From a bacterium (GTDB taxonomy: Bacteria > Vulcanimicrobiota > Xenobia > Xenobiales > JADMJV01): 64,000 nt of DNA. The notes under the pieces were generated by a model. The model made no database searches. It saw only the letters and a program-made list of their open reading frames with translations, and was not told the DNA's origin. Shown here piece by piece: positions 2,986-51,236 of the stretch. Within the stretch, counting starts at the first letter, position 1, and each line of letters starts with the position of its first letter. The stretch spans positions 71,594-135,593 of the forward strand of contig JAFEBA010000001.1 of the NCBI GenBank assembly GCA_018266105.1, given 5' to 3'. A program made the translations under genes and the position numbers.

Positions 2986-3109
2986 GGCTGAGCTGCCCCC
3001 AAATTTCTGAATTTCTTTGACTATAGTGGGAGCAGGTAACGAAAAGGTCGTGCGCGGCTGGTGCATGTTAACGGTTTGTTGCAGATTTGTGACCGTTTTG
3101 ACGGGTCTT

Positions 3110-4899: not shown

Positions 4900-5936
4900 G
4901 CGGCTTCCAATACCTCGAGCACGTTATAACAGCTGTCGCGCACCGCCGGAACGCGGCCCACGTTGCGGATCATCTGTGCGATCTGCTCGGCGTTGTAGGA
5001 GTAGGCCACGCCCGTGGCCGAGTTGACCAGTTCCTCCATCAGCACGCTGCCCAGGTCATCGGCTCCGAAGCTCAGGGCCAGCTGAGCCAGCTTGGCCCCC
5101 TCGGTGACCCAGCCGGCGTGGATGTGGGCGAAATTGTCCAGGTACAGGCGGGCGATGGCCAGGATGCGTAGATACTCGTGGCCGGCCGGGGGCACGGTGC
5201 GGGCCAGTCCGGTATAGTCGGGGGTCAGGCTCCAATGGATGAAACTACGGAAGCCGCCGGTGCGGTCCTGGAGGGCGCGCAACCGTTCCAGATGCTGGAT
5301 TCGCTGCTGATTGCTCTCGCCAAAGCCAAACACCATGGTAGCGGTGGACTCCATGCCTAGCTTGTGAGCGATTTCGTGAACTTCAAACCAGCGGTCGGCG
5401 CTGGTTTTCAGGGGAGAAACCTTGGTGCGAATCTCGTCGATCAGCATTTCCGCGCCTCCGCCCGGCAGCGAGTCCAGCCCGGCCTGTTTTAGTCTACGCA
5501 GGGTTTCTTCCAGCTCCAGTCCGCTGTGCAGCGCCATTTGGTCAACTTCCGTGGCCGTCAGGGAGTGCAGATAGACCTCCGGAAAACGAGCCTTGACGCT
5601 GGAAAACAGGTCTTCATAGTAGTCGATCTTGAGGTCGGGATTGTGCCCGCCCTGCAGCATCACGGTGGTGCCCTTGAACTTGAGCATCTCCTCGATCTTG
5701 CGAAAGATTTCGTCTTTGCTGCGTACGTAAGCCTCTTCGTGGCCGGGGGGACGATAGAATGCACAGAATTTGCAGTAGGTGATGCAAACATTGGTGTAAT
5801 TGATAATGCGGTCGCGCACAAAGGTAACTCGATTGTCGGGGAAGCGGCGACGCCGGTCCGCGTCCGCCCTTTCGCCCAGCTCCAGTAGATCCATGTCGAA
5901 CAGGGCCAGGCCCTGCTCCGGGGTTAGACGCTCCAT
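4896..5936 (-). CDS. Radical SAM enzyme of the futalosine pathway (MqnC/MqnE family)
   Basis: CxxxCxxC cluster motif NYTNVCITYCKFCAF. C-terminal LSFGADDLGSVLMEE is typical of MqnC/MqnE. Adjacent to an MqnA-like gene. Confidence 0.8.
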   Translation of the reverse strand: MERLTPEQGLALFDMDLLELGERADADRRRRFPDNRVTFVRDRIINYTNVCITYCKFCAFYRPPGHEEAYVRSKDEIFRKIEEMLKFKGTTVMLQGGHNPDLKIDYYEDLFSSVKARFPEVYLHSLTATEVDQMALHSGLELEETLRRLKQAGLDSLPGGGAEMLIDEIRTKVSPLKTSADRWFEVHEIAHKLGMESTATMVFGFGESNQQRIQHLERLRALQDRTGGFRSFIHWSLTPDYTGLARTVPPAGHEYLRILAIARLYLDNFAHIHAGWVTEGAKLAQLALSFGADDLGSVLMEELVNSATGVAYSYNAEQIAQMIRNVGRVPAVRDSCYNVLEVLEAA

Positions 5937-7497: not shown

Positions 7498-8354
7498 AAC
7501 AAAGAAACCAATAGTGTCAGGCTGATTCCCACGTTAGCCTGAAAAAACGCCTTTTGCATCTGACTTAAGTCCCCTGGTTTCAGAAGCCTGTGTTCGTAAT
7601 AAAGCAAAGCCCCGATCAGCCAGCAGCCCAGAGCGTAAACCCAGCCGAGGCCGGCCGTGGACCCAACTCGCCAGAGGCCGGCCCAGGCCACCAGATGCAG
7701 GCCTTCTGAAACCCGAAAAGCCCTCTCGATGCCAAAGCGCGAAGGCACGGAATACAGGCCGACTTTGCGGTCGTGCTCGAAATCCTGACAGGCGTAAAGC
7801 ACGTCGAATCCGGCCACCCAGGTGAAAATGACCAGGCCCAACCAGAGCGGAGTTTCGCCCCAGTGACCGCAGACTGCCAGCCAGCCGCCGATGGGCGCGC
7901 ATGCCTGCACCAGGCCCAACCACAGATGGCATAGCCAGGTAAAACGCTTGGTGTAGCTGTATCCCAGCAGCAAGAGGGCGGCTAGAGGCCAGAGGCGATA
8001 GCAGAGTGGATTGAGCTGGTGGGCGGCCAGTGCAAGCAAGGCCAGGCTGGCCAGCATAAGCAATACTACGGGCAGGGCTCCGATCTGGCCGGCAGGCAGG
8101 TGGCGATTGGCCGTGCGCGGGTTGACCGCGTCGATTTTCCAATCAATCAGGCGATTGGCCGACATGCCGGCGGTGCGGGCTCCGAACATCGCCAGGGTGA
8201 CCCAGAAGCAGGTCGCCAAAGGAGGCAGCCCGCGCTGAGCCAGCAGCATCCCGGCATAGGCAAATGGCAGTGCGAACAAGGTCTGCTCGAAGCGAACCAG
8301 GTCGAAAAAGAGTTTTGTCCGCCCGACGCGGGGCGTATCTGCGGTGGCGACCAT
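7479..8354 (-). CDS. UbiA-family aromatic prenyltransferase (MqnP/MenA-like)
   Basis: NRLIDWKIDAVNPRT first Asp-rich motif and YACQDFEHDRKVG second motif. Multiple transmembrane helices. First gene of the menaquinone operon. Confidence 0.8.
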   Translation of the reverse strand: MVATADTPRVGRTKLFFDLVRFEQTLFALPFAYAGMLLAQRGLPPLATCFWVTLAMFGARTAGMSANRLIDWKIDAVNPRTANRHLPAGQIGALPVVLLMLASLALLALAAHQLNPLCYRLWPLAALLLLGYSYTKRFTWLCHLWLGLVQACAPIGGWLAVCGHWGETPLWLGLVIFTWVAGFDVLYACQDFEHDRKVGLYSVPSRFGIERAFRVSEGLHLVAWAGLWRVGSTAGLGWVYALGCWLIGALLYYEHRLLKPGDLSQMQKAFFQANVGISLTLLVSLLWELVL

Positions 8355-8387
8355 TGTGGTTTGTGAAGTTTTTCACAAGCCACATGG
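8354..8387. promoter_or_regulatory. Imperfect 13-bp inverted repeat (TGTGGTTTGTGAA-gttt-TTCACAAGCCACA) abutting the start codon of the menaquinone operon
   Basis: Read directly from the sequence. One mismatch in the 13-bp arms. Lies in the divergent intergenic region 8355-8453. Confidence 0.4.
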
Positions 8388-8453
8388 CTCCTGCTGGTTA
8401 CGTCAGTACCTCGAGTTCTGCTGGGTCGGGGCTTAGACTGAAGTCAAAGGGAG

Positions 8454-8777
8454 GTGTCTATGCAATTTTCCGTTCTGGATCCAGAGGGGAAGGTTCAGGC
8501 CTTGCTCGACGCCGATACGGTCCGGGATGCGTGCCGTCAGTGGGCACGTCAGACCAGCAACGAAGCCACAATCGAAGAGAAGGTGAGTGAAGCCAGGCTG
8601 TTTCAGATCGGACCGAATCTGTTGGCGGCTCGGCTTGAGCCTTATGTCGTGACCCCGGTCGGCGCTGAAAAGGAAGCGATGCGCCTGAATGCCGAGCTAC
8701 TGGACACTGATCTGCACTATCGTTCGGAGGCCAGTCTGCCCGACCCGCGTATGGTCGACACCGGTGGGCGAGGTTAA
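8454..8777 (+). CDS. Hypothetical protein (107 aa)
   Basis: ORF preceded by GGGAGG eight nt upstream of the ATG. No recognisable domain. Confidence 0.45.
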   Translation: MSMQFSVLDPEGKVQALLDADTVRDACRQWARQTSNEATIEEKVSEARLFQIGPNLLAARLEPYVVTPVGAEKEAMRLNAELLDTDLHYRSEASLPDPRMVDTGGRG

Positions 8778-9343
8778 ATAAAGACCAGCACGATCCAGCT
8801 GAGGAGTGCACTGCACAGATCCCACAACGAGATTTCTACTCCCCAGGAAAGGGAGAGGCGGGCAGGCAGGTAGGAGACGGTGAGGGCTGCGAGCCGCAGG
8901 CCAGCCCCCCACGGTCGGGCCAGGGTCATCAAGACGGCAAAGAAAAGGAAGGCCCAGATCGGCAGCTTGCGCCACCAGGCCACTTCTCCGAAGCGTTCTT
9001 CCTGGGCCATGCCCACCGCGAACATGCTTCCGAACAGTGCTACAGAGAGTGACCAGGCGTAACCGATCGGGTGTTTAGGTAAAAATAGATAGTCCCAGAG
9101 CAGCATTCCAATGGCCAGTACAAAGCCCATGCCGTAGACGACTTCGGCCAGCCTGTATAGAGAGCGCCTTTGCTGGGGCACCCATTTGGGGATGCGGGGG
9201 AATTCCAGAGCGACGGCCATGGCGAAAACGCACACGACCTGGGCGGGGGCCAGCAGCCAGAGCAGGACTTCAAAATGCTCGCGCAACCAGTCCAGCCAGC
9301 CCGGAAGCAATCCACGGCTGACCCCCAACAGCACCAGATCCAT
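8774..9343 (-). CDS. Hypothetical integral membrane protein
   Basis: At least five hydrophobic helices. The start was moved to an internal Met (MDLVLLGV...) to avoid overlap with the divergent gene. Confidence 0.45.
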   Translation of the reverse strand: MDLVLLGVSRGLLPGWLDWLREHFEVLLWLLAPAQVVCVFAMAVALEFPRIPKWVPQQRRSLYRLAEVVYGMGFVLAIGMLLWDYLFLPKHPIGYAWSLSVALFGSMFAVGMAQEERFGEVAWWRKLPIWAFLFFAVLMTLARPWGAGLRLAALTVSYLPARLSLSWGVEISLWDLCSALLSWIVLVFI

Positions 9344-9440
9344 CAGAATATTCCAACTGGACAAGCTCGCTTCTTCGCTGTTCAGCGCACTCAACCCGCT
9401 ACCAGGGAGGATGCCAAGGGGGGGTAGCCAAGGCTTGAGT

Positions 9441-10076
9441 ATGGCATTGAAAACCCTGGAAGAGTTGACCGCCCGCCGAACGGCTTGGGGCAAGGTGCGC
9501 ACCTGGATTCAGCAAGCCGGCAAGCGTGTCCAGGTTTTGCCGGCTGATAATCAGTCCAGCGCCGCCACTCTTCTAGCTCTGCAAATCAGCACGGCGACAC
9601 CACTCGGAGCTCTGGCTGATCAGACTGGTGGGTTGCTGGTGGATTCTGGCTGGCTACGAATTCTGGGCAGCGGACACGAACGGATGCCCTGGGGTCTGGC
9701 CGAGTGGAACGGCCTGCAGGCCGACCACCAGCCCGTGCCTGACAAGTTGATTCTGGCTCATGATGTGCTGGGCGGTTTTTTTGCTCGCGAACACAACAAG
9801 AAGATCAGCTACTTTTCGCCTGATTCGCTTCGCTGGGAGAATACTCAGCTAGGCTACAGTGACTGGTTGGCCTGGGCTCTGTCCGAGGACATGGGAGACT
9901 TTTACGAGCACTTCCGCTGGCGCGGTTGGGCCAAAGAGGTGTCCGCCCTGGAGCCGCAGCAAGGTCTGCTGGTCCAGCCTTATCTTTGGGAGAAGGGTCC
10001 GGTTCTGGCTCGCCGCAAACGAATCCCCATTCCGATTGTTGAGCTGTGGGGCCGCTATCAGGATTCCTCTGTTTAG
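9441..10076 (+). CDS. DUF2625-like protein
   Basis: MALKTLEEL...VQVLPAD...TGGLLVDSGWLRILGSGHERMP pattern recalled from the DUF2625 family. Start assigned to the internal ATG at 9441. Confidence 0.5.
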   Translation: MALKTLEELTARRTAWGKVRTWIQQAGKRVQVLPADNQSSAATLLALQISTATPLGALADQTGGLLVDSGWLRILGSGHERMPWGLAEWNGLQADHQPVPDKLILAHDVLGGFFAREHNKKISYFSPDSLRWENTQLGYSDWLAWALSEDMGDFYEHFRWRGWAKEVSALEPQQGLLVQPYLWEKGPVLARRKRIPIPIVELWGRYQDSSV

Positions 10077-10188
10077 TCAGCCTTGATGAGCTGCTGACGT
10101 GCAGCGCTGAACGGGCGTCGTTGCAGTGTCTGGTCCTTTGAAGCAAATGACGCGAAATCGAGCGTGTGAGGCTGATTGTCAAGAACTC

Positions 10189-11046
10189 CTAGGGTCCTGG
10201 CCGCTTCTTTTCTTCCATTTCTTCCAAGGTCTTGGGCCAGTCTGATTTCAGGAGTCTGGATAGGGAGCGGTCGGCCAGCAGCTTGCCTCCTGTCTGGCAT
10301 ATGGCGCAATAGTTCGTCTCGTTCTCAGCATACCGGATACGCTGAATAGGGTTTCCGCATTGGGGGCAGGGCTGCTGATATTTGCCGTGGGCTGCCATGT
10401 TGGCGTGAAAGGCTGTTACGGTGGTTGGGAACTTTTCGCCCCACTCAGCTTGCAGGGCGTCGCGCCAGCCGGACAACTGCTCGCGGATCGTTTCGAAGAG
10501 CCGCTGGCTCTCCTCGGGGGAGAGTTGAGTGGTCAGGCGCACCGGCGAGAGCCGCGCGCGCAGTAAGATTTCGTCACTGTAGGCATTGCCGATGCCGGAA
10601 AAGATGGTCGGGTCGGTCAGGGCCCGCTTGAGAGTGTGTCGCCTGGAGGCCAGCAGAGCCCGGAATTGCTCCAGTGAGGCCGAGAAGATTTCCACACCTC
10701 CCGGGTCGTGTTCGGCCAGAGCGGTCTCGCCGCGCACCAGGTGGATCTTGGCTCGGCGTTTGGTTCCGGCTTCACTCAGGCCCAACCAGCCGCTTTCAAA
10801 TTTCCAGCAAATCAGGCAGCCGCCCGGCATCTTGCTTTCGTTCCAGCGGAACCGTCCTGCGATCATCAGGTGGATGATAAGAAAGAGGTCCGGGGGGAAT
10901 CCGAGCACAATGCGCTTCCCGAGTCGGCGCAGTTCCGTGACTTCGCGGCCGACCAGTTCGGACAGGGGTGGCTCGACAGTGCGCAGTACGAAGGGATCTT
11001 TGCGCTGGACTTGGAGCAGCTTTCGACCCTGCAAGCGGGGTCGCAA
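10189..11046 (-). CDS. fpg: Formamidopyrimidine-DNA glycosylase (Fpg/Nei family); true start uncertain, probably near 11085
   Basis: C-terminal zinc finger CPQCGNPIQRIRYAENETNYCAICQ. The upstream in-frame sequence IPEYPDIELYLSAL resembles the Fpg N-terminus PELPEVE, but no ATG, GTG or TTG codon precedes it. Confidence 0.75.
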   Translation of the reverse strand: MRPRLQGRKLLQVQRKDPFVLRTVEPPLSELVGREVTELRRLGKRIVLGFPPDLFLIIHLMIAGRFRWNESKMPGGCLICWKFESGWLGLSEAGTKRRAKIHLVRGETALAEHDPGGVEIFSASLEQFRALLASRRHTLKRALTDPTIFSGIGNAYSDEILLRARLSPVRLTTQLSPEESQRLFETIREQLSGWRDALQAEWGEKFPTTVTAFHANMAAHGKYQQPCPQCGNPIQRIRYAENETNYCAICQTGGKLLADRSLSRLLKSDWPKTLEEMEEKKRPGP

Positions 11047-39432: not shown

Positions 39433-42120
39433 CTAGTCTTCTAAGAGGAACTCGTTCCACATCCGCTGGATTCGCATGCGGGCGGAGGTGATGCCGGTGC
39501 CGTGCTCAAACAGGTCGTTGAGGCCTTCCTGTACTTCCTCCAGGAGTTCTGGCTGGAAAAGCAGTTCCTCTCGCAGGCAACCATAGGTGGCAGCGGTGAT
39601 GCCCACCAACCGGGCCGCCGCGTGGTCGGCCACCGGGTCCAGGCGCTTCAAGAACACTTCGTCGCGGAACGCGAATTCGCGGGTGTAGAGGAAGCCGACC
39701 CAGTTGGTGGCCTGGTACCAGTGTAACAGCAGATTGCGGCATTCGTTCTCGAACTCCGGAGCGGCCGGGTCCAGAGCTTGAAGTCGGTCCATTAAGCTGG
39801 GATTGGGAACGGAGCCCTCCTCCAGGTAGAGCTCCACGGCTGCCTGAGCCAGTTGGAGGCGCTGAGCATCGGTCAAGGCGCTGGACTGATGAGCCAGCTG
39901 GCTGTGGCCGCGATACATCCGAACCAGGTGTCGGAAGACCAGGAAGCAGAGCTCCTCCGGAGGCATGCCCTCAATGTCGCGATGGAAGATGAGTGTCAGT
40001 TCGGGCTCCGCGCTGGCATCCACCAGGAACATGTCGTCTCCGTCATAAGTGAGAACTTTCAGTTCGGGGAAGTCAAACAGTGTGTAGTCAACCGCTCGCA
40101 GCGCCTGGCGCAGGGTGCCGACGAAGGCAGCTGGACCGGTGTTCTCCAGCCGCTGTTCGAATTGCTCGGAGGGAACCGGTAGTTTCAGGCCGGCCTTGGG
40201 GAGCAAGTTGTCTCGCAGGAAACTGACGACTTCCTCTTCCTCCTCGTTGCCAAGGCTGGAAACAAAATCTCGATTGAGGCCCCTTTTGCCCATGCCGACT
40301 CCGAGTTCTTGTTTCTGGACCTCGGCCCGGGGGGAGGTGCCGAACTGATAGAACAAGGCCAGGCGGTCGCCATTGTTGCCCGTGGCGGTGGATTCGGCAG
40401 AGGACAGGATTTCGAAGAGGTAGACCATCTCGGCACCCGCCATGGCCTCGTTAAGGTAAGGCACGATGTCTTCCTGGCCGGCTTTGATTCGGGCCAGCGC
40501 CAGGTTGGCCTTGGCTTCATTCTCAACCCAGGTTTCCACTTCCAGGGCCTGTTCCAGCAGCTCGGCCGCGCCCTGGGGGTTGCTGCTCACCAGATTGAGG
40601 CCGTTGGCGATTTGCTCAAACTTTGCGCGCGCGGCAGCCGGCGCCCAGTCTTCTGTTTGCCCGGCTTCGGCGACAGGCTCTTCAGCCACGGAAGCTTGCT
40701 CTTCAGGAAGCTGCTCGGGTTCCTGCGCCACGGGCTCGGGCTCCTCAGCCACGGGCTCGGGCTCCTCAGCCACAGGCTCGGCCATTGCTTCTTCTGGCTC
40801 TGGAATGATGGACTCTTCGGTTTCGTCCAGGGCCAGGGCGTCTTCGAAATTCAGTTCCGGCGACTCGGCAGTCGGCTCCTCCGGCTCTGGTTCGGGCTGC
40901 TCGACAACCAGTTCTTCGGCGACTGTCTCCTCAGTGACCGGCTCCTCTACAACCGGCTCCTCGGCGATCGGCTCTTCCTCGGTCAGGATTTCCTCGGTCA
41001 GGATTTCTTCAGGGCTGGCCTCCTCTACGATGGCCTCTGTGACCACCTTCTCAGCGGGATCGGAGAGTTCCGCTTCCAGGCTCAGCGCAGTGGATGGCTC
41101 GTCGATGGGTTCGGGAGCTTGCTCCTCTGATTCAGCGTCGAGCAAGGCAGATAGATCGAGCTCTGGCTCCGGTTCGGGCTGCACCAGATCGATTTCGGGC
41201 TCGGGCTCTAGAGGTTCGGTTTCCTGGGCCTTCAGCTCCAGAGGTGCAGGGTCGGTTTGCCGGGCCGCCGGGGGCGTCGGCAGGGGTGACTCGTCTCCCG
41301 AGACTTGCTTCCACGCCTCGCCCAGGGCTGATTTGAGGGCGGCCTGATCGGCCGGCTCGCCGAACAGTTGGCTCCCTGTATCCTGGAGCGTGTCGAAGAG
41401 TTCCTCCAGTTTGGGCATTTCCGAGCAACTGTGGGGGAGTTCGAGCAGTTCGTAGACTTGATCGACCAGAGTCCGGCCCGGGATGCCCAGCACCAGATCC
41501 AGTTGGGACATCAGGATATCATAGGCGGTGCCGGACGAGTGGCTGGCGACGGCCTGGAAGTCATCGCCGCTCAAAAACTGCTCTTTGAAGTCGTGAACCA
41601 GTTGCTCCAGTTTGGCGATGCGGCCTTCGCGGGTGGTCAACTCTTCCTGGAGCTGGCTCATGTTTTGCTGGCGACGAGCCAGCTCTTCTTTCTGGCGGGC
41701 CAGCTCGGCCTCGTGGCTATGAACCTGTTCGCGGCTTTGAGTGAGTTCGCTCTGGAGCTCCTCCACCGAGTGGTCCAGCTTCTCACCCCGCGCTGTGGCG
41801 TCGGCCAGCTGGGCCTCCAGCCGGGCCTTCATCTCGGCCGCCTGGTTGCGGGCTTCGGCTAACTCTTGAGCAGCGCGTTCCTGAGTTTCGGCCAGCTCCT
41901 GTTGCAGTTTCTTGCTTTGCTGGTCCAGTTGCCGGTTCTTAAAGGCAAGCTGAACGCCTTCGCCCGTCAATCGCTTCACTTCTTCGGTGAGGCGCTTGTT
42001 GGTGGAGCGCAACTCTTTAATCTGTTCAAAAGCCTTCAGATCGGGCTCGCCCAGTTGACTTTTCAAGCTGGCGTTTTCTTCTTGAAGTTGAGCCAATTGT
42101 TGCGCTAAGTCGGCGGACAT
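39433..42120 (-). CDS. Large coiled-coil protein with a central acidic Pro/Glu-rich repeat region and a C-terminal globular domain
   Basis: 895 aa. The N-terminal roughly 190 aa is heptad-rich (LAQLQEENASLKSQL...). Residues about 290-480 are PEPE/EEPV repeats (AEEPEPVAEEPEPVAQEPE, EEILTEEILTEEE). The C-terminal roughly 400 aa is non-repetitive. Confidence 0.6.
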   Translation of the reverse strand: MSADLAQQLAQLQEENASLKSQLGEPDLKAFEQIKELRSTNKRLTEEVKRLTGEGVQLAFKNRQLDQQSKKLQQELAETQERAAQELAEARNQAAEMKARLEAQLADATARGEKLDHSVEELQSELTQSREQVHSHEAELARQKEELARRQQNMSQLQEELTTREGRIAKLEQLVHDFKEQFLSGDDFQAVASHSSGTAYDILMSQLDLVLGIPGRTLVDQVYELLELPHSCSEMPKLEELFDTLQDTGSQLFGEPADQAALKSALGEAWKQVSGDESPLPTPPAARQTDPAPLELKAQETEPLEPEPEIDLVQPEPEPELDLSALLDAESEEQAPEPIDEPSTALSLEAELSDPAEKVVTEAIVEEASPEEILTEEILTEEEPIAEEPVVEEPVTEETVAEELVVEQPEPEPEEPTAESPELNFEDALALDETEESIIPEPEEAMAEPVAEEPEPVAEEPEPVAQEPEQLPEEQASVAEEPVAEAGQTEDWAPAAARAKFEQIANGLNLVSSNPQGAAELLEQALEVETWVENEAKANLALARIKAGQEDIVPYLNEAMAGAEMVYLFEILSSAESTATGNNGDRLALFYQFGTSPRAEVQKQELGVGMGKRGLNRDFVSSLGNEEEEEVVSFLRDNLLPKAGLKLPVPSEQFEQRLENTGPAAFVGTLRQALRAVDYTLFDFPELKVLTYDGDDMFLVDASAEPELTLIFHRDIEGMPPEELCFLVFRHLVRMYRGHSQLAHQSSALTDAQRLQLAQAAVELYLEEGSVPNPSLMDRLQALDPAAPEFENECRNLLLHWYQATNWVGFLYTREFAFRDEVFLKRLDPVADHAAARLVGITAATYGCLREELLFQPELLEEVQEGLNDLFEHGTGITSARMRIQRMWNEFLLED
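40739..40793. repeat. 21-bp tandem repeat (CACGGGCTCGGGCTCCTCAGC, about 2.6 copies) encoding AEEPEPV units
   Basis: Seen directly in the sequence. A second 15-bp tandem (CGGTCAGGATTTCCT, two copies) at 40981-41010 encodes EEILT. Confidence 0.8.
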
Positions 42121-42194
42121 GGGAACGCTCCTCGTTAAGGTGCTCTCCTCTTTGCAGTCGCCCCAGGAAAACCCTGGTCCCGGCCAAGAACGCC

Positions 42195-44414
42195 TTGAAC
42201 ATGCGTAAGCGCACGGAAATGGGCGAGTTTGATGCCGTCAAACGAATTCAGACGGTCAAAGGCCGTGATTACATTCCTCGTCAGAATGCTCACCGACTGG
42301 CCGTGGTCGATGACAGATGGGCGGAGGCTCGCGCCGGGCGCATCGAGGCCCAGGCCAGGAGGGGGCCGTCCAACCCGGCCAATCGGAAACCCCTCAATGT
42401 TCAGCTGTATGTAACCCGCTACCGTTCGGCTCTGCGCAGTTGGCCTCAAATCGAGAGCTTGATCGAGCGTTTGAATGAATTCTTCGTTGGCCCCCAGCTG
42501 GTGTTTCAACTGGTGGAGCCGGCTGAGTGCAATCGCTCGGTTTCCTACGCCCAGCGCTGTCCTTTCGGGGCCGATCTGGATCATGAGTACGAGTGGCTGC
42601 ATCTGGCGGTCGTCCCCAGGCTGCCCGACGAGCTCCCGGTACTGACCTCCTGCGGGCGCTGCATGCTCATCTCGGACCGCAGCCAGGATCAGGATATCGC
42701 GCGCGCTCTGGCTCAGCTACTGGGCCTGGGGCCCAACTGCGAGCTGGACTTTAGCGAGCAGAGTATCCAATGGTTGCGCTGGCAGGCCTTTTTGCTGCAG
42801 GGCCAACCAGTGCCCCTGCCTTTGGTGAGTCTACCCGTTTGGGCCTACCCTGTGGTGACGCCGGACGATTATCACTCCCAGCGAAATCTGGAGCAGATCC
42901 AGCAACTTTTGGAGCGAGTGAATTTGATCTGGATGCAGGCCGGGGTTTCCTTTGAGCTGGCGGGCTGTTGTCCGTTGCATCATTCGGACATCGGTGAGCA
43001 AGCCTGGGAGCAGGCGGTCACGCCTTCTGTGGAGCCCCTTTTGAAGCTGACGGAATACGCTCCGAACTCTCTTCATCTGCCCATGATTCGGGCCGTTCCG
43101 GTTCCCTGGTCTTGTTTTGCGTATCCTGAGCATCGCCTGGCTATCGTGCGCGATGGGGTCACCCCCCTTTCGGTCGCTCAGGCCTTGGGCCGACTGTTGG
43201 GCCTGACCGAGGTCGAGGGCAGGGACCAATTGCTGAGCCTGGGGGCCGAGGGACAGCGTATCGGAAACGATGAAGCCCGTCGCGCCAGAGAGCGTGGCCT
43301 GCAGATGAGCGGACTGTCCCTGGATACCCCCGTTCCAGAGGTGGTTCGGGCCGCTCGCAGGGGTTGGTTGGCCCCGGCCCTTCCGGAGCAGCGCAGCCTC
43401 GAATTTCAGCTGATCTTGTTGCGTGGTCCAGATTCGGCCTGCAAACTGAGCCTGGAAGAGGCTCGCAGCTGGTTAGAGGAGGTGGGCCTGGTCTGGGCCC
43501 AGGCCGGAATTGCGCTGAGGCCCCATTTAAGCGAAGCTGATGTGGCTCAAGCGGCCGTGGAGGCCGCCTACCCCAATCCTGGGGGCGAGCGTAAGCCCAG
43601 TTGTGCGGGGCTGACCCGGTTGCCCGGTTACCGAGCCGGTAGCTACAATCTTTGCGTCCTGCAAAGGCTGCCGGTGCTCAACAAAATCGAGCAGTATCAG
43701 TCTTACCTGAATTGGCCCGGCCCTCGTCTGACGCTGCTGGCGGCGGACTTTCCCGCACACGGCAGGGTCAAGCAGTTGGCCCTGGCTCTGGCGGCGGCCT
43801 GGGGGGTCAAGCCAGGGGAAGGCGCCTTTCAGCGCCTGTTGACGCGCGGCTCTCAAGGCTTAAGGTTAGAGCCGGACGACTGCGCTGCCGTGCATGCCGC
43901 TCTGGCCGGGCCGGCTTTTCAGGCCCCCTCGCCCAGCTCCCGCTCCACTTTCGGTGAGTTGCTCTCGTTGCCCATCAAGTTGCGCCGTGTCACCGGTCAC
44001 AATCCATGTCTTTCGCAGGCCGAGGAAGTGGCTCGCCTGGTTTGTTCTCATCCGATCTGGGAGCAGACCAATATTCAACCGAAGATTGTGGATTCCGATC
44101 AAGTCGAGGTGGGGGAGGCGGCCTTGTTGGAGAGCTATCCCAGCGCGCCCGGTAGCGCCACTCCGCGCATCCCCTTCAATTTTGGACTGTTGCGTCTGCC
44201 CGGGCACCACCCTCAGGCCATCAACCTGCTGGTGGTGGGGCAGATGCCGACCGGCAACAGTTCCGCTTTCTCGCTTTCCAGAATGGTGCTGGCTGATCCC
44301 GACTGTGCCGCGGCCGGGTTGGCGCAGCTGATCGGACTGAACCTTTCGGCGCCGATATCGGCTGAAGCGATGAAGTCAGCCCGCTCCACTTTGCTCAGAA
44401 TGTTTCAGACCTGA
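42195..44414 (+). CDS. Protein built from four tandem degenerate metzincin (matrixin)-like repeats lacking the zinc ligands
   Basis: Four roughly 170-aa repeats. Each has a W-x-Q-A-G-[IV]-x-[FL] element (LERVNLIWMQAGVSFEL, LEEVGLVWAQAGIALRP) about 100 aa before a helix. That helix aligns with HExxHxxGxxH but carries substitutions: IARALAQLLGLGPN, VAQALGRLLGLTEV, LALALAAAWGVKPG, AAAGLAQLIGLNLS. Confidence 0.45.
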   Translation: MNMRKRTEMGEFDAVKRIQTVKGRDYIPRQNAHRLAVVDDRWAEARAGRIEAQARRGPSNPANRKPLNVQLYVTRYRSALRSWPQIESLIERLNEFFVGPQLVFQLVEPAECNRSVSYAQRCPFGADLDHEYEWLHLAVVPRLPDELPVLTSCGRCMLISDRSQDQDIARALAQLLGLGPNCELDFSEQSIQWLRWQAFLLQGQPVPLPLVSLPVWAYPVVTPDDYHSQRNLEQIQQLLERVNLIWMQAGVSFELAGCCPLHHSDIGEQAWEQAVTPSVEPLLKLTEYAPNSLHLPMIRAVPVPWSCFAYPEHRLAIVRDGVTPLSVAQALGRLLGLTEVEGRDQLLSLGAEGQRIGNDEARRARERGLQMSGLSLDTPVPEVVRAARRGWLAPALPEQRSLEFQLILLRGPDSACKLSLEEARSWLEEVGLVWAQAGIALRPHLSEADVAQAAVEAAYPNPGGERKPSCAGLTRLPGYRAGSYNLCVLQRLPVLNKIEQYQSYLNWPGPRLTLLAADFPAHGRVKQLALALAAAWGVKPGEGAFQRLLTRGSQGLRLEPDDCAAVHAALAGPAFQAPSPSSRSTFGELLSLPIKLRRVTGHNPCLSQAEEVARLVCSHPIWEQTNIQPKIVDSDQVEVGEAALLESYPSAPGSATPRIPFNFGLLRLPGHHPQAINLLVVGQMPTGNSSAFSLSRMVLADPDCAAAGLAQLIGLNLSAPISAEAMKSARSTLLRMFQT

Positions 44415-44457: not shown

Positions 44458-45081
44458 GTGCGCAAATTACGCGGACATACGCTGCTGGAAGTCATGATGT
44501 GTGCCTCCCTGCTCACCTTGACGTTGGGATTGATGGCGCCCCTCTTTGGGCGCACCAGCCGGGTGGTGAATCGGGCCGATCGCGATGCCAGTTCACAGCA
44601 GCAGGCCCTGGTGGGAGTGCAGAAGCTCTTTGCTGAGGCGGCTTACTCCAGTTCCGCCAGCCTGCGGATTGACCCCACCGACCCCAGTGCCTGTGCTTTC
44701 CTCAGTCAGCAGGCAGTGCATGGAGCCAGTGTTCCGCCCATCGGGACAGGAGATTTCTTAAAGACGGGCTTTTTCACCCCCGAGATGCACTGGCAAAAGA
44801 TGCTGGTGATCTACTATCAGAGCGGCACCCAAAAGCTGAACTACAAAGAGTTTACCTACAACGACCCACAGCAAGAAATCGCGCTGGTCCATCGCGACCG
44901 ACTGCAAGCCCTGATTTACCGCACAGACACTCCCGAGCACGTGGTGGCCACGGGGGTGACTGGCTTTACTGTAGAATCTCCCCAGCAAGGGTTGATTTCG
45001 ACTTCCATCACCGCTGAGAAGAAATGGGATAAGACCTTTCGATGCAAACTCGATCTGCTTTTCGCAATGCGCAATCAGTAA
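44458..45081 (+). CDS. Pseudopilin/minor pilin-like protein (prepilin-type N-terminus, GspH/FimT-like size)
   Basis: MRKLRGHTLLEVMMCASLLTLTLGL matches a prepilin cleavage/methylation site with Glu at +5. GTG start. Confidence 0.6.
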   Translation: MRKLRGHTLLEVMMCASLLTLTLGLMAPLFGRTSRVVNRADRDASSQQQALVGVQKLFAEAAYSSSASLRIDPTDPSACAFLSQQAVHGASVPPIGTGDFLKTGFFTPEMHWQKMLVIYYQSGTQKLNYKEFTYNDPQQEIALVHRDRLQALIYRTDTPEHVVATGVTGFTVESPQQGLISTSITAEKKWDKTFRCKLDLLFAMRNQ

Positions 45082-46268
45082 GGGGAATCGCCGTAATCAC
45101 GGTGCTGCTGATCAGCGGCGTGATTCTGGCTTTCGTTCTGGGCGGCCTCAATCTGGCCGCTCAGCACCTTTTTCAGGTCTCCGCCCTGCACAGTCGGCAC
45201 CGTGCCCTATGCGCCGCTGAGGTGGGGGTAAGTAAGGCTCAGTATGAACTGGAGGAGAATCCAGCCTACGCCGGGCCGGCGAACGGGGCTTTGGAGGACG
45301 GTTCTCAGTATTCGGTCAGCATCGAGCACGTGGGGACAAAAGCCATTCTTCATTCGCTGGGGCAAGCGGGGGGGCAGTCGCAGAAGTTGAAGGTGGTGAT
45401 GTCCCTGGATGCCGATACCTATAGAGCTCTCAGCTCAAAGGGCTTGCTCGATTTTCCGACCGACTCGTTCATCAACGGGATCCGCTCACTCTCTGACACT
45501 CGCAGCGCCAAGGGAAACACTCATACCCAGGGTGATCTGCGCATTGCTGGTGCTGCCAAGCTCTCGGTGACCGGCCTGGCTTCGGCTTCGGGTAGTTTCG
45601 ATGACCCCAGCCGTGTCGTAGCGGGAGAGCACGCCACCGGCGGGACGGCCACCACTCCCAATTTCACCAGGGACTCGCTCCTGGCGGTGTCTTTTCCCGG
45701 CGCCTTCATTCCGGCTAGTGGAACGGTCACTCAGAATACGGAAGTCAACGGTCAGACCAATTTGAATCATCCGCTCAATATCCCGGCGGGCGTAACCGTA
45801 CATGTGAAGGGAGACCTGATCCTCAATCAGGGGATGCATGGTGACGGCACGCTGGTGGTGGACGGAAATCTGCTGTTGCGCGGTTCTGAGAACTTGAAGA
45901 GCGATACTCCCAAGGGCGTTCTCGTCTACGCTCAAAAAGACATCATCCTGGCTCACCCCTCGGCAGAGGTGGACCCGGACGCCACCAACGGATTTACGGC
46001 TCACATCAGCAGCGTGGGTTCCCTGTTCGCTGAGATGCCGGAGGGAGTGCCTTACTTATTGCGCCAGCGCCTGCCGCCCGGCGCGCCCGCCAACGTGAAT
46101 TTTTTCGCCTGGTATTCTGCCCAGCAGCAGTCCCCCACGCCCGCCTTCACAGAGTGGCAGCAGGGGGACAACACCACCCTCAATCCAGGGCTACCGCCTG
46201 ATGTGCTCAGTTGGCTGGGCAAGGCGGCTGCCATGCACACCCAGATCGAAGCGACGGTGAACCCATGA
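45042..46268 (+). CDS. GspK/PilX-like pseudopilin with a large beta-rich C-terminal domain
   Basis: SVRGIAVITVLLISGVILAFVLG is a pilin-like N-terminal helix without Glu+5, the GspK hallmark. The C-terminus has Gly/Asn/Thr-rich beta-strand repeats (GDLILNQGMHGDGTLVVDGNLLLRGSENL). Confidence 0.55.
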   Translation: MQTRSAFRNAQSVRGIAVITVLLISGVILAFVLGGLNLAAQHLFQVSALHSRHRALCAAEVGVSKAQYELEENPAYAGPANGALEDGSQYSVSIEHVGTKAILHSLGQAGGQSQKLKVVMSLDADTYRALSSKGLLDFPTDSFINGIRSLSDTRSAKGNTHTQGDLRIAGAAKLSVTGLASASGSFDDPSRVVAGEHATGGTATTPNFTRDSLLAVSFPGAFIPASGTVTQNTEVNGQTNLNHPLNIPAGVTVHVKGDLILNQGMHGDGTLVVDGNLLLRGSENLKSDTPKGVLVYAQKDIILAHPSAEVDPDATNGFTAHISSVGSLFAEMPEGVPYLLRQRLPPGAPANVNFFAWYSAQQQSPTPAFTEWQQGDNTTLNPGLPPDVLSWLGKAAAMHTQIEATVNP

Positions 46269-46696
46269 AGAAACTTTGGCCTTTGCTCTTCCTGGCCGCG
46301 CTGGTGGTCGGCTGTAACGATGCCGCCACCGTGGCCGCTCAACTTCATCTCACCGAGGAGTCCGTCACGCTGGCGGCGGACAAATTCAAAGATCCTGAAG
46401 GCGCCTCGCTCAGCCCCACCCACTCCGACTACGTCAACAACTTGTTCGGGAATGTCAATCCTGCAGGAGTGGATGTCAATCTGGGGCTGCCCAACTACGC
46501 CTATTTTCAGGGCCTTCTTTTCAGTGAACAGAACGTCTTTATGGCCGGCCAGGTTCGCGTGGTCGGGGGAGTGGTGGCTAACGGCAATGTGACGGTGGCG
46601 GGCCAGGGTATGGTCACCACCAATCCGGAGAGCCAGATCAACCGCATCAGCGTGACCAAGGCACGTTGGAAAGTGGAGTCCTGGGTTCAGGAGTAG
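46265..46696 (+). CDS. Lipoprotein with Gly/Val/Asn-rich beta repeats
   Basis: Lipobox LAALVVGC. GQVRVVGGVVANGNVTVAGQGMVTT repeats. The ATG overlaps the upstream stop. Confidence 0.5.
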   Translation: MKKLWPLLFLAALVVGCNDAATVAAQLHLTEESVTLAADKFKDPEGASLSPTHSDYVNNLFGNVNPAGVDVNLGLPNYAYFQGLLFSEQNVFMAGQVRVVGGVVANGNVTVAGQGMVTTNPESQINRISVTKARWKVESWVQE

Positions 46697-46697
46697 A

Positions 46698-47096
46698 TCA
46701 GGGCTTGGGATAGCAAGATTCCAGGGTCACCTGGCGATCGCGGCTGCTCTGGCGCCAGGTGACTCGAGAGATCAACTTCACATAGCGACTTCCCATGGCG
46801 GGCAGAACCTGGGCGGTTACCTGCTGATGGTAGACCACGGTGGTGTCGTCAACAGGCACAGTCTGGTCTTTGACTCCCAGGGCAGGATTGGTGATCAGTT
46901 TGTCCAGGGCATTGGAGTCAACGCGCAGGCGTTCCAGTTCGCTCTGGGCGATGGTGGAGGCAACCGCCTGGTATTTGCCTTCCTTGACGCTGCGGTAGAC
47001 GGTGGCGACAAAACTGGCAATACAGATGACCGCCACGACCAGGATGGCCAGAGCCAGAACTACTTCGCTCAGACTGAGGCCACGTTTCGTTCGCAT
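46698..47096 (-). CDS. Pseudopilin (GspI-like) with a prepilin-type N-terminus
   Basis: MRTKRGLSLSEVVLALAILVVAV. 132 aa. Confidence 0.65.
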   Translation of the reverse strand: MRTKRGLSLSEVVLALAILVVAVICIASFVATVYRSVKEGKYQAVASTIAQSELERLRVDSNALDKLITNPALGVKDQTVPVDDTTVVYHQQVTAQVLPAMGSRYVKLISRVTWRQSSRDRQVTLESCYPKP

Positions 47097-47116: not shown

Positions 47117-48145
47117 TTAGAGCTGGTCCCGCGCAGCCGCGGCCTGATCGGGCATATTTGAGAAAACTCCATCCAGGCCGGCTTCGAAATAGACCCGCAC
47201 CTCATCTTTGAGGGACCCGTTGGCTTCCGGATCGCTGCCGATTCGAAGGGCTGGGGGCAGGAAGCTATTCTCGGCGCGGAACGTCCAGCTATGGACTTTC
47301 AGCCCAGCCTCATGAGCGGCCTGGATCAGGCCTGTGTCGGCCGCCAGCGAGCCATCCGGGTTGCGCCGAATGAGCATCAGTTTGTAGGGGGAAACGGCGC
47401 TTGCGTAGGAAGCGATTTCGGCCAATCCGGCAGGCTTGACCATGTCCGCGTAGGTTTCTTTGCGTCCCGACTCGACCCAGTCTTGAGGAGCGCCCGCGTC
47501 ATCCACAAGCTGGACCAGGGGAATTTCCGTCATCTGGTGCAGTCGCTTCAGGTTGCTCACTTCGAAGGATTGAATGTAGACCGGCGCGTTGGCCCCTTGG
47601 TAGCCGTAGCGGCTCAAGATCGCGAGCATCTTGTCTTCGATGGGCAGCCCGATGCGCCGAAAGTAGCTCGGGTGCTTGGTCTCCGGGTAGACTCCGATGG
47701 TGCGCCCGTAGCTTTTTTCCCAGCCTCGCACGGCCCTTAGAATCTCTTCGAAGGTGACGATGGAGAAGCGCCCGTCATAGGCATGACTGGCGCGATTGCG
47801 GCCGCGAGCCCGTAAGCTCTTGAGTTCGGCCAGCGTGAAATCTTCCGTAAACCAGCCGGTAATCTGGCGGCCGTCCACGCTTTTGCTCGTCTTACGACCG
47901 GCGAATTCGGGATGCTCGGCAACGTTGGTGGTGTCGCTGATATCATTTTCGTGACGCGCCACCAGATGACCATCTTTGGTCGGCACCAGATCGGGTTCGA
48001 CATAGTCAGCGCCCTGGCGCACGGCCAGTTCGTAGCCTTCCAAAGTATGCTCGGGCAGGTAGCCGCTGGCCCCTCGATGAGCAATAACGATCGGTTTGGA
48101 CCAGGCGTTCAGGCTCAGGACTACAAACAAAAGCAGGCGTTTCAT
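47117..48145 (-). CDS. glpQ: Glycerophosphodiester phosphodiesterase
   Basis: IAHRGASGYLPEHTLEGYELAVRQGADYVEPDLV catalytic N-terminus. The start is taken at the signal-peptide Met (MKRLLLFVVLSL); an alternative start lies at 48187. Confidence 0.85.
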   Translation of the reverse strand: MKRLLLFVVLSLNAWSKPIVIAHRGASGYLPEHTLEGYELAVRQGADYVEPDLVPTKDGHLVARHENDISDTTNVAEHPEFAGRKTSKSVDGRQITGWFTEDFTLAELKSLRARGRNRASHAYDGRFSIVTFEEILRAVRGWEKSYGRTIGVYPETKHPSYFRRIGLPIEDKMLAILSRYGYQGANAPVYIQSFEVSNLKRLHQMTEIPLVQLVDDAGAPQDWVESGRKETYADMVKPAGLAEIASYASAVSPYKLMLIRRNPDGSLAADTGLIQAAHEAGLKVHSWTFRAENSFLPPALRIGSDPEANGSLKDEVRVYFEAGLDGVFSNMPDQAAAARDQL

Positions 48146-48206
48146 CTGGCCGGGATTCGTCGGCCGAGGCCAGTTCCTGCCCGTCAAAGTATTTGCATAC
48201 TGTGAC

Positions 48207-48311: not shown

Positions 48312-51236
48312 GTGCCCACAATGATTCGTGGCACCGGCAAACGAGCCCGCGGTAGCGCCCTGGTGGCCGTCATGATGGTGATCGCAATGCTGATGGCCGT
48401 CGTTCTGGCGATCTCGCACTTCCAGGCGGTGGCCCGCCGAACATACATGACCGAAGAAGCCAATCTGCGCTTTCGGGAAGCGGCCCGATTCGAAACCCGC
48501 CGTCAAGTCCTGAATATCAATCCTCCCGGAGATCTCATTCTGTCGGTCAAGGTCAAAGACGAGACCCCCGCCGGCACCCCCAAGCTCAGCAAAGAGATGG
48601 CCAGCGACATTTTCAACCGCAGCTCTTCTCAGTTGCCCGATTTACGATCTGTGGATAAAAGCCCGGCCAACCAGGTTTTGCGCTTTACTCCTCAGAGCAA
48701 TGACCCAGGTCTGCTGGTTTTTGGGAGCAACACCTACACCCAACTTGTCACCAACGTGCCCGGTTACGCGGCCTACGCTCCCAACGGAAGCGTCAACATT
48801 ACCAACCTGGAGAGTTGGGCCAACCCGACTTTCCAGGACGCACGCAAAACCTTGCAGGCCTACTCGGGCGTGATGGCTGTGGTAGCAGCCAAGCAGGACG
48901 CGAATATTGCCAATGTGACCTACGGCGAAGCCCACGTCATGGAAGGGACTGCCAAGTTTGACCACGGCGATGGAGTGGGTTTTAAGAAGAAGAACTTCCC
49001 CTTACCCGCCTATGAGGCTCTGCTGGTTCAGCAAGCCAAGGACGCTCGCCAGGCGCTGATCAATCAGGCAGCCAGCGGAGATAAAACCCAACAGCTCTAT
49101 TCGGGCGACCTCAGCCCTCAGAGCGTGATTGATCTATTCTTCAACGGCCAGCAGGGCCTGGAAGCCATGCTCAGTTTGAATAAGTCCAATCATTTCTTCA
49201 TGCCGACCATCCCCTTCTTTAGTTCGGCTCCGCCTTACCTTTACAGCTTCGCCTTCCATATGCCTTACCCGGCTGATAACGCCAGTTACAGTCCGAATGA
49301 AAACTTGAACAAACAAGTGGAAGCTCTCAACAAGCAGATCAAACAGGCCGGTGAGGATCTCAAAAAGGCCTACGATGTTCAGCAGGCGGCCCAGCAGGCC
49401 TACGACCAGAACAAGAGCAGCGATAATCTCCAAAAGCTGATCGATGCCAATACTGCTTACAACCTGGCCAAGGCCAAGGTCGATGACCTCAACCAACAAA
49501 TGCAGGCTCTCTTCGGGCCTCAAAAGGCGGCCATGGATGCCCAGATCGGAAGCAGTCAGCCGCGCGGCGTGCCCCTGACCCGGGCACAGGACCCCAGTGG
49601 TAATGATGGGGTCACGGGCTGGAGCTACGCCAGCTCAGGCAGTCTGTTGGGCCAGCTGATCAAACTGATCTTCACCTTTGACGTTGAGGACCTGGCCAAG
49701 AGCTTCGGAAACACCGAGGTAAAACTGGTCCACTTCGGCACCAAGGAACGTGAGTTCAAATTTGTGCTGGATGGAAACAACCTGGGTATCGACGCCACCA
49801 TGACTGTGCCTCGGGGGCGAGTGCTCAAGTTGAGTGGCAAGAATATCACGATCTCAGGCGATCTCTGGCTGCAGCGCGGCTCAACTTTCTATGCTGACTG
49901 CGATAAGCTCACGGTGGTTCCTGGGCGCGGCAGCGATCCGAGCAAATACTTCAGCCCCTGCGGCCGAATCTTTATGGAAGAAGGCAGTACCCTGATCTGT
50001 CGAGGAGAGGTCGAGTGTCTGGGCTCATCCGACTGGGGTTCGGTGGTGGTGGGAGGAGTGCCGGGAAAAATTCATCCGATCACTGCCGCCATTTTTGCCA
50101 ATAAGGTGACGCTGGGGAACGGCATTTTCGCTGGCTGCGCCCTGGACGATCTGGCCGAAGGGCTGGGAGACCTCTTCAATAGCTCGGAGCTGAAGGACTT
50201 GAACTCCAAGCTGATGCGACCCCTCTTCACAGAGGTGGCACCCAACGCAGCCAAGGCTCTAGGCCCGTTCTGGCCCCGTAAGCCATACTTTGCGAAGTAC
50301 GCCACCACCTTTCAGGTGATCTGCCCGCCCTTACCTCCTTTCGGCGAACCAGGACCTCCGGTTCCAACCGCAATTCCGTTGCCCATCAAGAATGTGCTGG
50401 TTCCGATCGAACGCGCTCTGGGCTACGTTTACTCGGTCAGCCTGAACCTGGGCCTGGGCGAAAATTTCTACACCCACTCCGACTGGTGGATCTTCGGCGA
50501 AGGAGTTGTGCCTGTGGTCCCCCAGGTGGATCCGAATAAGATTCTGGACAAGCTGAACAATCTGACCGGCAGCATCGCCGGTTTGCACCCGGAGGACATT
50601 ATCAAAACCTTCATCGAGGCGGCCGTCAAAGACATGGTTTCCTATGTGGTGGCTGAGGTGGTGGAGAAGATCGTGGCAAAGGTGCTGGCGGCCGCGATTC
50701 CTTACGCCGGTCTGGCCGAGGTGGCCACCAGCTTATTGGATGAAGCCACCAGTAATCTAACCGGCCGCGATACCGCCCGGGACTCTGCCGGGCAGGCGCT
50801 GACTTCGGCTCTCACCGATTCTCTGGCCTCGGCGGGCAAAGCCACTTTGGACAAGCTGGCCAGTACCGTCAGCATGAATCTGCAGGACGACTTCTTGCGT
50901 GAGTACAACGGCTTGCTGGTCTACGCCGATGACACCATTACGGTCGGCGGCAAGAACGCCACCGGGATGTTCGTGGCCGGCGGCAATTTGCGAGTGACTT
51001 CAAACCAGTGCACCGGCACGCTGCTTTCAGTCAATGGCAATATCCAGTGCACCAGCCTGTTGTTCTATCCCTACTTCAATCGGGCTTCGCTCTACCTGCC
51101 CAAGGAGACCGCGTCGGGCTGGCTGGAGCGGGGGGCACAGTGCTTCTACGATAAAGACTGGGATAGTAAGAAGGCTGTGGATGTTGGACCGCCGGCCATT
51201 CCTCCGGTCGTTTCGGCTCAGGGTTGGGCCCAATGA
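48312..51236 (+). CDS. Giant (974 aa) GspK-like pseudopilin-N-terminus protein with a central coiled-coil and beta-solenoid-like segments
   Basis: N-terminal RGSALVAVMMVIAMLMAVVLA is a pilin-like helix without Glu+5. The middle has a Q/K/A-rich helical stretch (NKQVEALNKQIKQAGEDLKKAYDVQQAAQQAYDQN). Later segments are Gly/Asn/Thr-rich (TITVGGKNATGMFVAGGNLRVTSNQCTGTLLSVNGNIQCTS). Confidence 0.6.
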   Translation: MPTMIRGTGKRARGSALVAVMMVIAMLMAVVLAISHFQAVARRTYMTEEANLRFREAARFETRRQVLNINPPGDLILSVKVKDETPAGTPKLSKEMASDIFNRSSSQLPDLRSVDKSPANQVLRFTPQSNDPGLLVFGSNTYTQLVTNVPGYAAYAPNGSVNITNLESWANPTFQDARKTLQAYSGVMAVVAAKQDANIANVTYGEAHVMEGTAKFDHGDGVGFKKKNFPLPAYEALLVQQAKDARQALINQAASGDKTQQLYSGDLSPQSVIDLFFNGQQGLEAMLSLNKSNHFFMPTIPFFSSAPPYLYSFAFHMPYPADNASYSPNENLNKQVEALNKQIKQAGEDLKKAYDVQQAAQQAYDQNKSSDNLQKLIDANTAYNLAKAKVDDLNQQMQALFGPQKAAMDAQIGSSQPRGVPLTRAQDPSGNDGVTGWSYASSGSLLGQLIKLIFTFDVEDLAKSFGNTEVKLVHFGTKEREFKFVLDGNNLGIDATMTVPRGRVLKLSGKNITISGDLWLQRGSTFYADCDKLTVVPGRGSDPSKYFSPCGRIFMEEGSTLICRGEVECLGSSDWGSVVVGGVPGKIHPITAAIFANKVTLGNGIFAGCALDDLAEGLGDLFNSSELKDLNSKLMRPLFTEVAPNAAKALGPFWPRKPYFAKYATTFQVICPPLPPFGEPGPPVPTAIPLPIKNVLVPIERALGYVYSVSLNLGLGENFYTHSDWWIFGEGVVPVVPQVDPNKILDKLNNLTGSIAGLHPEDIIKTFIEAAVKDMVSYVVAEVVEKIVAKVLAAAIPYAGLAEVATSLLDEATSNLTGRDTARDSAGQALTSALTDSLASAGKATLDKLASTVSMNLQDDFLREYNGLLVYADDTITVGGKNATGMFVAGGNLRVTSNQCTGTLLSVNGNIQCTSLLFYPYFNRASLYLPKETASGWLERGAQCFYDKDWDSKKAVDVGPPAIPPVVSAQGWAQ

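Follow-up and report, generated by a model that had tools for sequence, protein, structure and literature searches.

The 64,000-nucleotide window analysed here, a stretch of contig JAFEBA010000001.1 (assembly GCA_018266105.1) from an uncultured, soil-type bacterium of the Vulcanimicrobiota (Eremiobacterota), carries on its forward strand, at 42195-44414, an open reading frame of 739 amino acids (aa) that starts with TTG at 42195 and whose product we regard, with high confidence, as a tandem array of four pseudo-metzincin domains. A first-pass annotation of this DNA had described the same reading frame and had interpreted its product as four metzincin-like repeats with substituted zinc sites, an interpretation that the present analysis supports overall. 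The six peptides that it quoted are all present in the translation: four helices starting at residues 168, 327, 528 and 705 and two W-x-QAG elements at residues 239 and 427.

Gene and repeat architecture

The identical protein in NCBI is hypothetical protein JST97_00555, which has 737 aa, and all orthologs begin with MRKRTEMGE; because of this the true start is probably the ATG at 42201, which would give the 737-aa form. No Shine-Dalgarno-like sequence was found upstream of either TTG 42195 or ATG 42201. The first 62 residues (42195-42380) form a basic region with an isoelectric point of 11.1 and, from hydropathy, without signal peptide or hydrophobic segment. It is followed by four units of about 140-190 aa each, all on the forward strand: repeat 1 (R1, residues 63-204, 42381-42806), the most diverged unit and yet the best conserved across the family, in which it always comes first; repeat 2 (R2, residues 205-392 with a core at 207-374, 42807-43370), the nearest to active metzincins by hhalign, tblastn, structure model and Foldseek; repeat 3 (R3, residues 393-582, 43371-43940), which ends in a flexible linker; and repeat 4 (R4, residues 583-739, 43941-44411), the least conserved of the four.

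A BLASTP self-comparison is blind to these repeats (no self-match at E<=10) because the units are too diverged for pairwise methods, and hhalign was needed to reveal them. Using hhalign on four slices of a 19-member family alignment, we obtained probabilities of 99.6% for R3-R4 (E 5e-24), 98.0% for R2-R3 (E 1.6e-13), 97.3% for R2-R4 (E 2.5e-11) and 95.1% for R1-R2 (E 3.4e-8), and neither R1-R3 nor R1-R4 was significant on its own. The units are in register from the first strand through the last helix, and the four-repeat architecture is real: the four repeats announced by the first-pass annotation are borne out at 95-99.6% between neighbouring repeat types, and the length of about 170 aa that it gave for them is roughly right. 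The W-x-Q-A-G-[IV] element that it placed in each repeat can be seen clearly only in R2 and R3; R4 has part of it (IWEQTNI) and R1 lacks it (FFVGPQL).

The linker between R3 and R4 covers residues 573-585 (43911-43949), with predicted local distance difference test (pLDDT) values below 50 in the structure model described below. It is the sole internal low-confidence segment of that model, and in the longer distant homologs (894-1167 aa), which have five or six units, the one or two additional units are inserted at this site. The linker looks like a hotspot of repeat gain and loss. Relatives as a whole carry arrays of 2-6 units, and P0028 and P0033, the smallest family members, consist of R1 and R2 only. 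Positions conserved at 90% or more number 20 of 142 in R1, 21 in R2, 3 in R3 and 0 of 157 in R4, counts that for R3 and R4 have to be read with the variable repeat number in mind, as it blurs the alignment of the tail. Orthologs align over the full length at 69-81% identity, the helix and Met-turn positions are strongly conserved, and the four domains are under purifying selection.

The family is small. An exhaustive phmmer search over 1.84 billion representatives recovered just 33 relatives, and among 185,579 species genomes scanned the family turned up at four loci only, three of them in Vulcanimicrobiota and one in an unclassified bacterial metagenome-assembled genome (MAG). So far it is limited to metagenomic contigs and a small number of MAGs of the Vulcanimicrobiota.

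Metzincin fold and loss of the zinc site

In Pfam, no family matches the window protein at E<=1, so that the gathering thresholds of Reprolysin_3 (PF13582) and Peptidase_M10 (PF00413) are not reached, and NCBIfam gives no match either. The full-length AlphaFold2 model, built with the family alignment, is confident (pLDDT 80.7, predicted template modelling score (pTM) 0.66), with disorder confined to residues 1-26 and 573-585, and its secondary-structure elements follow one another in the same order in every unit. R2 modelled alone, with an alignment of 94 non-redundant repeat instances, reached a pLDDT of 96.3 and a pTM of 0.91. The domains show the elements of a metzincin catalytic domain, namely a sheet of five strands, of which one edge strand is antiparallel, a backing helix, an active-site helix and a C-terminal helix. 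In a Foldseek search of the R2 model against the PDB, the best 50 matches are all metzincin catalytic domains, among 58 matches at E<=1e-3. ADAM-8 stands at the top (E 4.8e-6, TMq 0.66), and the matches include adamalysin II, atrolysin C, snake-venom reprolysins, fragilysin/BFT, ADAMTS-5 and an archaemetzincin-type peptidase, at identities of 7-17%. About 45 of the top 50 matches of the full-length model are metzincins of the same families. The zincin or metzincin fold that the first-pass annotation had expected is therefore the one recovered, and the repeats were not placed in a non-protease fold.

The link in sequence passes through four of the 33 relatives (P0038, P0042, P0044 and P0046), which are single-domain proteins of about 200 aa. 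They sit among the weakest phmmer matches, with E-values from 6e-8 to 2.6e-4 that are still significant library-wide, and their zinc motif is intact or near-intact, with the full HExxHxxGxxH in two of them. At the position of the degenerate helix they read AHEFGHLLGLRHVEPVTSLM, AHELGHHLGLHHV, AHELGHILRLRHSPYPERLM and AHEMAHMLGLHD, and the stretches that contain the zinc motif are AHEFGHLLGLRH..SLM, AHELGHHLGLHH, AHELGHILRLRH..RLM and AHEMAHMLGLHD, the last being the motif of P0038. Only P0042, P0046 and P0044 reach a Pfam gathering threshold, with scores of 27.8 and 25.9 against the 22.4 of Reprolysin_3 and of 24.4 against the 24 of Peptidase_M10, and no named NCBIfam metzincin family was found for any of the four.

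For a comparison of degenerate and active domains we gathered 167 repeat instances from all 47 family proteins. The profile of the 161 fully degenerate repeats matches that of the four active domains at 99.9% (hhalign, E 1.2e-32, 162 columns), and the alignment sets lA+aLa+lLGL on tAHEfGHlLgL, that is, A-x-A-L-x-x-L-L-G-L on A-H-E-x-G-H-x-L-G-L. The helix register on the metzincin signature that had been proposed from inspection is thereby reproduced by a profile-profile method. Taken one by one against the active-domain profile, the repeats of the window protein score 99.6% for R2 (E 2.3e-24), 98.5% for R3, 98.1% for R4 and 88.7% for R1, and pairwise tblastn of the active relatives against the window gives a match of the whole domain on R2 (E 9e-14 to 8e-9). 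A repeat profile of 94 rows, the four active domains among them, found 23 matches among PDB sequences, all of them metzincins (snapalysin, MMP-1/2/8/11, ADAMTS-5 and BFT among them) and each weak (E 0.02-1.9); in all 23 the alignment falls on the active-site helix together with the Met-turn and the C-terminal helix. The full-length family profile without the active members reaches no solved metzincin among PDB sequences, and therefore the sequence link hinges on the active intermediates; its matches to triosephosphate isomerase (E>=0.65) were insignificant and taken as noise. A prefiltered homolog search with the 94-repeat profile returned 2 matches, its word prefilter probably having been swamped. 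Through the active intermediates and the modelled structure together, the repeats can be considered homologous to bona fide metzincins.

One could object that the resemblance is convergent or due to chance and that the repeats adopt an unrelated alpha/beta fold, since the window protein matches neither Pfam nor NCBIfam, the family profile by itself falls short of the PDB metzincins and the Foldseek identities are as low as stated. This explanation is effectively refuted by the full-domain profile match to HExxHxxGxxH proteins, by phmmer matches that hold library-wide, by best structural matches that are exclusively metzincins and by the fact that the weak PDB sequence matches, without exception, fall on metzincins and on the same three elements.

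All four repeats have lost the HExxHxxGxxH/D site of the metzincin clan (MA(M)). The degenerate helix of R1, IARALAQLLGLGPN (42696-42737), has R170 and P180 in place of the first and third zinc-binding histidines, Q174 in place of the second and A171 in place of the catalytic glutamate, the motif glycine being kept as G177. In R2, the helix VAQALGRLLGLTEV, which together with the Met-turn equivalent G342-x-D344-Q345-L346-L347 occupies 43173-43235, has Q329, R333 and E339 for the histidines, A330 for the glutamate and G336 for the glycine. The corresponding residues of the R3 helix LALALAAAWGVKPG (43776-43817) are L530, A534 and P540, A531 and G537, and those of the R4 helix AAAGLAQLIGLNLS (44307-44348) are A707, Q711 and L717, G708 and G714. 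Three histidines and the glutamate are thus gone from each repeat and the glycine alone is kept; the first-pass annotation was right that every ligand and the catalytic glutamate are replaced in all four, and its summary of the individual substitutions was slightly mis-assigned.

The methionine that metzincins conserve in the Met-turn, a 1,4-turn below the metal site, is likewise missing. A Met-turn region, for which the first-pass annotation had suggested looking, is present in R2, with Leu347, and in R3, with Leu548/549; R1 and R4 have lost this segment by deletion. In R2 the spacing from the helix to the Met-turn equivalent is the same as in the alignment with MMP-2, and most orthologs carry a methionine there (DQLM). 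Of the 167 repeat instances, 64 have Met at the Met-turn position, 35 have Leu and 49 a gap, and 134 keep the motif glycine. The first histidine, the glutamate and the second histidine are kept together in the four single-domain proteins only, and none of the multi-repeat proteins has a complete zinc site. Part-decayed intermediates exist, such as AHEIGYVLGLE in P0035 and SRVIGHLLGLHH in P0033, and the first histidine alone persists in the second repeat of several distant homologs. The first-pass annotation had pointed to paralogs retaining HExxH: these exist as the distant single-domain relatives, and the window holds none.

By analogy, the pattern is that of the ADAM pseudopeptidases, with structural residues retained and the chemistry lost. 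As the zinc histidines and the catalytic glutamate are lost in all four repeats, the protein does not qualify as a canonical metalloprotease, and from these ligand substitutions zinc-dependent endopeptidase activity is predicted to be absent.

Cysteine cluster, localisation and genomic context

R1 contains, at residues 122-156 (42558-42662, forward strand), a cluster of cysteines and histidines, C122-P-F...D129-H130...H136...C153-G-R-C156, that is invariant in the 19-member alignment. Its motif, C-P-[FYL]-x4-[DE]-H-x4-hydrophobic-[HQ]-x14-17-C-G-[RC]-C, forms an insertion in R1, accompanies the R1-type domain in every protein that has one and is found in no other family member, active relatives included. 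Judged by its residues, the cluster is possibly a Cys3His metal site, with no relation to the zinc site of the ancestor. A stronger proposal would be that the metal site has been relocated, Cys122, His130, Cys153 and Cys156, with His136 perhaps, binding zinc or iron in a catalytic or redox-sensing role. The invariance of the cluster in every R1-type protein, the standing of R1 as the most conserved unit, with its 20 positions at 90% or more, and the general suitability of Cys/His ligands for a cytoplasmic metal site speak for it. We nevertheless consider it quite unlikely, as clusters of a CxxC with a further Cys and a His are typically structural, no general base or acid was identified near the cluster, and P0035 and P0039-41, which lack R1, still retain the array.

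All four active relatives have a hydrophobic segment at the N-terminus, of the signal, anchor or lipobox-like kind, and no multi-repeat member has one. For the window protein, hydropathy peaks at 1.30 (maximum KD19), with an N-terminal maximum of -0.51. Since the multi-repeat proteins have no export segment and the 62 N-terminal residues of this one are basic, the array is most likely cytoplasmic.

Two relatives indicate what such arrays may do. In P0039 and P0040, two or three degenerate repeats lie N-terminal to one or two modules of the SpoVK/CbbX/EccA type (AAA and AAA_lid_6), those of P0040 scoring 379 bits with the SpoVK model, 307 with CbbX and 303 with EccA. AAA+ ATPases of this kind, such as EccA and CbbX, bear domains for the recognition of substrates or partners at the N-terminal position, and the existence of these fusions supports a recognition role for the repeats. 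P0040 itself is encoded at positions 8001-10889 of its locus (L004), where its neighbours are housekeeping or signalling genes. The scaffold idea could be narrowed on these grounds, the window protein being the recognition subunit of an AAA+ remodelling or secretion machine of the same type that is encoded elsewhere. The fusions and the bit scores of P0040 favour this; however, no such AAA+ gene lies within the 64-kb window or the ortholog loci, the fusions are distant members (E of about 2e-6) without R1, and fusion in one branch is no proof of partnership in another, so that we hold this narrower form to be unlikely.

The regulation of active cousins is a frequent role of pseudoenzymes (PMC11266112), and this domain family does have active members, which would be consistent with the array being a decoy or inhibitor, as the first-pass annotation had suggested, or a chaperone of active metzincins, for instance one that keeps an exported protease inactive in the cytoplasm. 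This role appears very improbable: no active relative is encoded in the window or in any of the ortholog loci fetched, the active relatives carry export signals and the window protein has none, and those known stem from short metagenomic contigs.

On the reverse strand, at 39433-42120, the array gene faces a gene for a very acidic protein of 895 aa (net charge -121), whose N-terminal part has a coiled coil, whose middle is rich in Glu and Pro and whose C-terminal domain is conserved. The two are separated by an intergenic spacer (42121-42194) of 74 bp, as the first-pass annotation had stated for the TTG start, or of 80 bp for ATG 42201. No consensus sigma-70 promoter was detected in this spacer, and a scan for promoters and terminators near the gene ends gave nothing beyond shuffled expectation; a GAGGAG lies about 8 nucleotides upstream of the ATG of the acidic gene. 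The divergent pairing that had been pointed out holds in every close ortholog and does not extend beyond them: the neighbour is absent next to the 47%-identical homolog and next to the six-repeat paralog, for which reason we treat it as lineage synteny and as an unproven candidate partner in this lineage only. Its C-terminal domain of about 400 aa (residues 491-895, 39436-40650) is unannotated and lineage-restricted, with no Pfam match even at E<=10 and only 8 homolog clusters, all of them unannotated; at locus L007 it shows 90% identity, against 69% for the pseudo-metzincin. The FLVFRHLVRMYRGH of this domain presumably resembles a degenerate helix of the M48-type HExxH kind. In PADLOC-DB the 895-aa protein matches only the coiled-coil regions of SMC-like models, and neither the window protein nor P0021, P0023 and P0035 gave any defence-system match at E<=0.01.

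Downstream, a cluster of type IV pilin- or pseudopilin-like genes covers 44458-47096 and 48312-51236, and a putative GDPD gene lies at 47117-48187 on the reverse strand, with pilin-like genes between it and the array gene. The N_methyl motif match at 44458 is weak and below the Pfam cutoff, and similar N-termini occur at 46698 (reverse strand) and 48312. An operon of the array gene with these pilin-like genes was considered and rejected, as they are missing at that position in the ortholog loci; at ortholog locus L001, the GDPD gene is directly next and is followed by a gene for a 954-aa protein.

The six-repeat paralog P0023 (1167 aa, positions 2259-5762 of locus L005, GCA_046327835.1) shares its MAG with a four-repeat ortholog. 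Genes for CHAT-domain (caspase-like) proteins and IS110 and Y2 transposases stand on either side of it. An EAD1 match in P0023 (E 0.009) was below threshold and not accepted. These surroundings give a weak hint of a conflict-system context.

Comparison with known metzincins and proposed role

The closest parallel is provided by the ADAM pseudopeptidases (ADAM2, 7, 11, 18, 22, 23, 29 and 32, unc-71 of C. elegans and the MEROPS M12B non-peptidase homologues), in which a dead metzincin domain keeps its fold. They keep the Met-turn and act via protein-protein interaction (PMC11266112). The style of replacement is similar, with ligands and glutamate exchanged in QSLAQNLGIQWE of ADAM23 as in QALGRLLGLTE here, the motif glycine and the Met-turn region are retained in both groups, and ADAM-8 and the adamalysins are the best structural matches of R2. 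ADAMs, however, are extracellular proteins of eukaryotes that cross the membrane once and combine one protease-like domain with a prodomain and with disintegrin, Cys-rich and EGF modules, whereas the window protein comes from a bacterium, lacks a signal peptide and carries four dead domains in tandem; neither the Pfam domains of the ADAM architecture nor a hydrophobic segment was found in it.

The minimal (~170-aa) exported bacterial metzincins represented by P0038, P0042, P0044 and P0046, unnamed and recognisable at the level of Pfam Reprolysin_3 or Peptidase_M10 only, are homologous to the repeats over the entire domain. They share with the array the IW-x-QAGI strand, the LGL helix, the Met-turn spacing and a C-terminal helix of the form G-x-x-L-x-x-x-E-I-x-x-AR. 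Unlike the array they are single-domain, keep the zinc motif and glutamate, bear the N-terminal signal, anchor or lipobox-like segment and have no Cys/His cluster.

Matrixins (M10) and snapalysin (M7) are the best PDB sequence matches of the repeat profile, aligning through the active-site helix, the 7 residues that separate it from the Met-turn and the helix after that (MMP-2 ...RLSQDDIK; snapalysin AHETGHVLGLPDH...ELMSGGGPG). The E-values of these matches are only those given above, and structurally the adamalysin type fits better. Matrixins differ further in being secreted and catalytically active and in having structural Zn/Ca sites and a cysteine-switch prodomain. Tandem metallopeptidase domains with an inactive copy have a precedent in carboxypeptidase D (PMC11266112), an M14 enzyme of different fold and clan (funnelin), eukaryotic and membrane-anchored, in which one domain of three, the third, is dead. 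As for the EccA, CbbX and SpoVK proteins, the repeats of P0039 and P0040 stand where EccA has its TPR repeats, and the window protein differs from all of these in having no ATPase domain, nor one nearby.

Taking these elements together, we lean slightly towards the reading that four dead metzincin domains, derived from an exported zinc endopeptidase, now serve as a non-catalytic binding scaffold in the cytoplasm. A small exported zinc endopeptidase would be the ancestor of the four tandem domains, none of which retains a zinc-binding histidine or the catalytic glutamate and all of which keep the scaffold, that is, the five-stranded sheet, the backing helix, the former active-site helix with its glycine, the C-terminal helix and, in R2 and R3, the Met-turn region. 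R1 and R2 would constitute a conserved core, and R3, R4 and the extra copies of relatives a variable tail. The mode of action would be non-catalytic, the retained clefts or surfaces binding protein or peptide partners, and the array would work as a scaffold or recognition module, as do the dead protease domains of ADAM22, ADAM23 and ADAM11 in animals. That the protein acts as a binding scaffold or adaptor is, taken for itself, a tentative proposal, to which we give somewhat less than even chances.

Metzincin pseudoenzymes are already established for animal ADAMs, the only source from which they are known and in which the dead protease domain has turned into a receptor or adhesion surface, and a bacterial tandem all-dead array appears to be new. 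A 2024 review of pseudopeptidases contains no bacterial or tandem metzincin example (PMC11266112), and a text search of the literature found no description of a bacterial, cytoplasmic or tandem all-dead metzincin array. It is conceivable, if doubtful in this full form, that we are dealing with the first prokaryotic family of metzincin pseudoenzymes, in which an exported protease would have been recruited to the cytoplasm, multiplied to 2-6 units and deprived of catalysis so as to become a modular platform for protein recognition, fused to AAA+ ATPases of unfoldase type in some lineages and equipped, in its R1-R2 core, with a new Cys3His metal site.

For the biology of the family, what matters is that active exported single-domain enzymes, part-decayed intermediates and dead arrays of two to six copies coexist within one small group of proteins. 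They offer a clean natural case of the conversion of a protease to a scaffold in an uncultured phylum, and a compact metzincin scaffold of about 170 aa that tolerates complete loss of its metal site, for which the AAA+ fusions and the Cys/His cluster are concrete leads to function.

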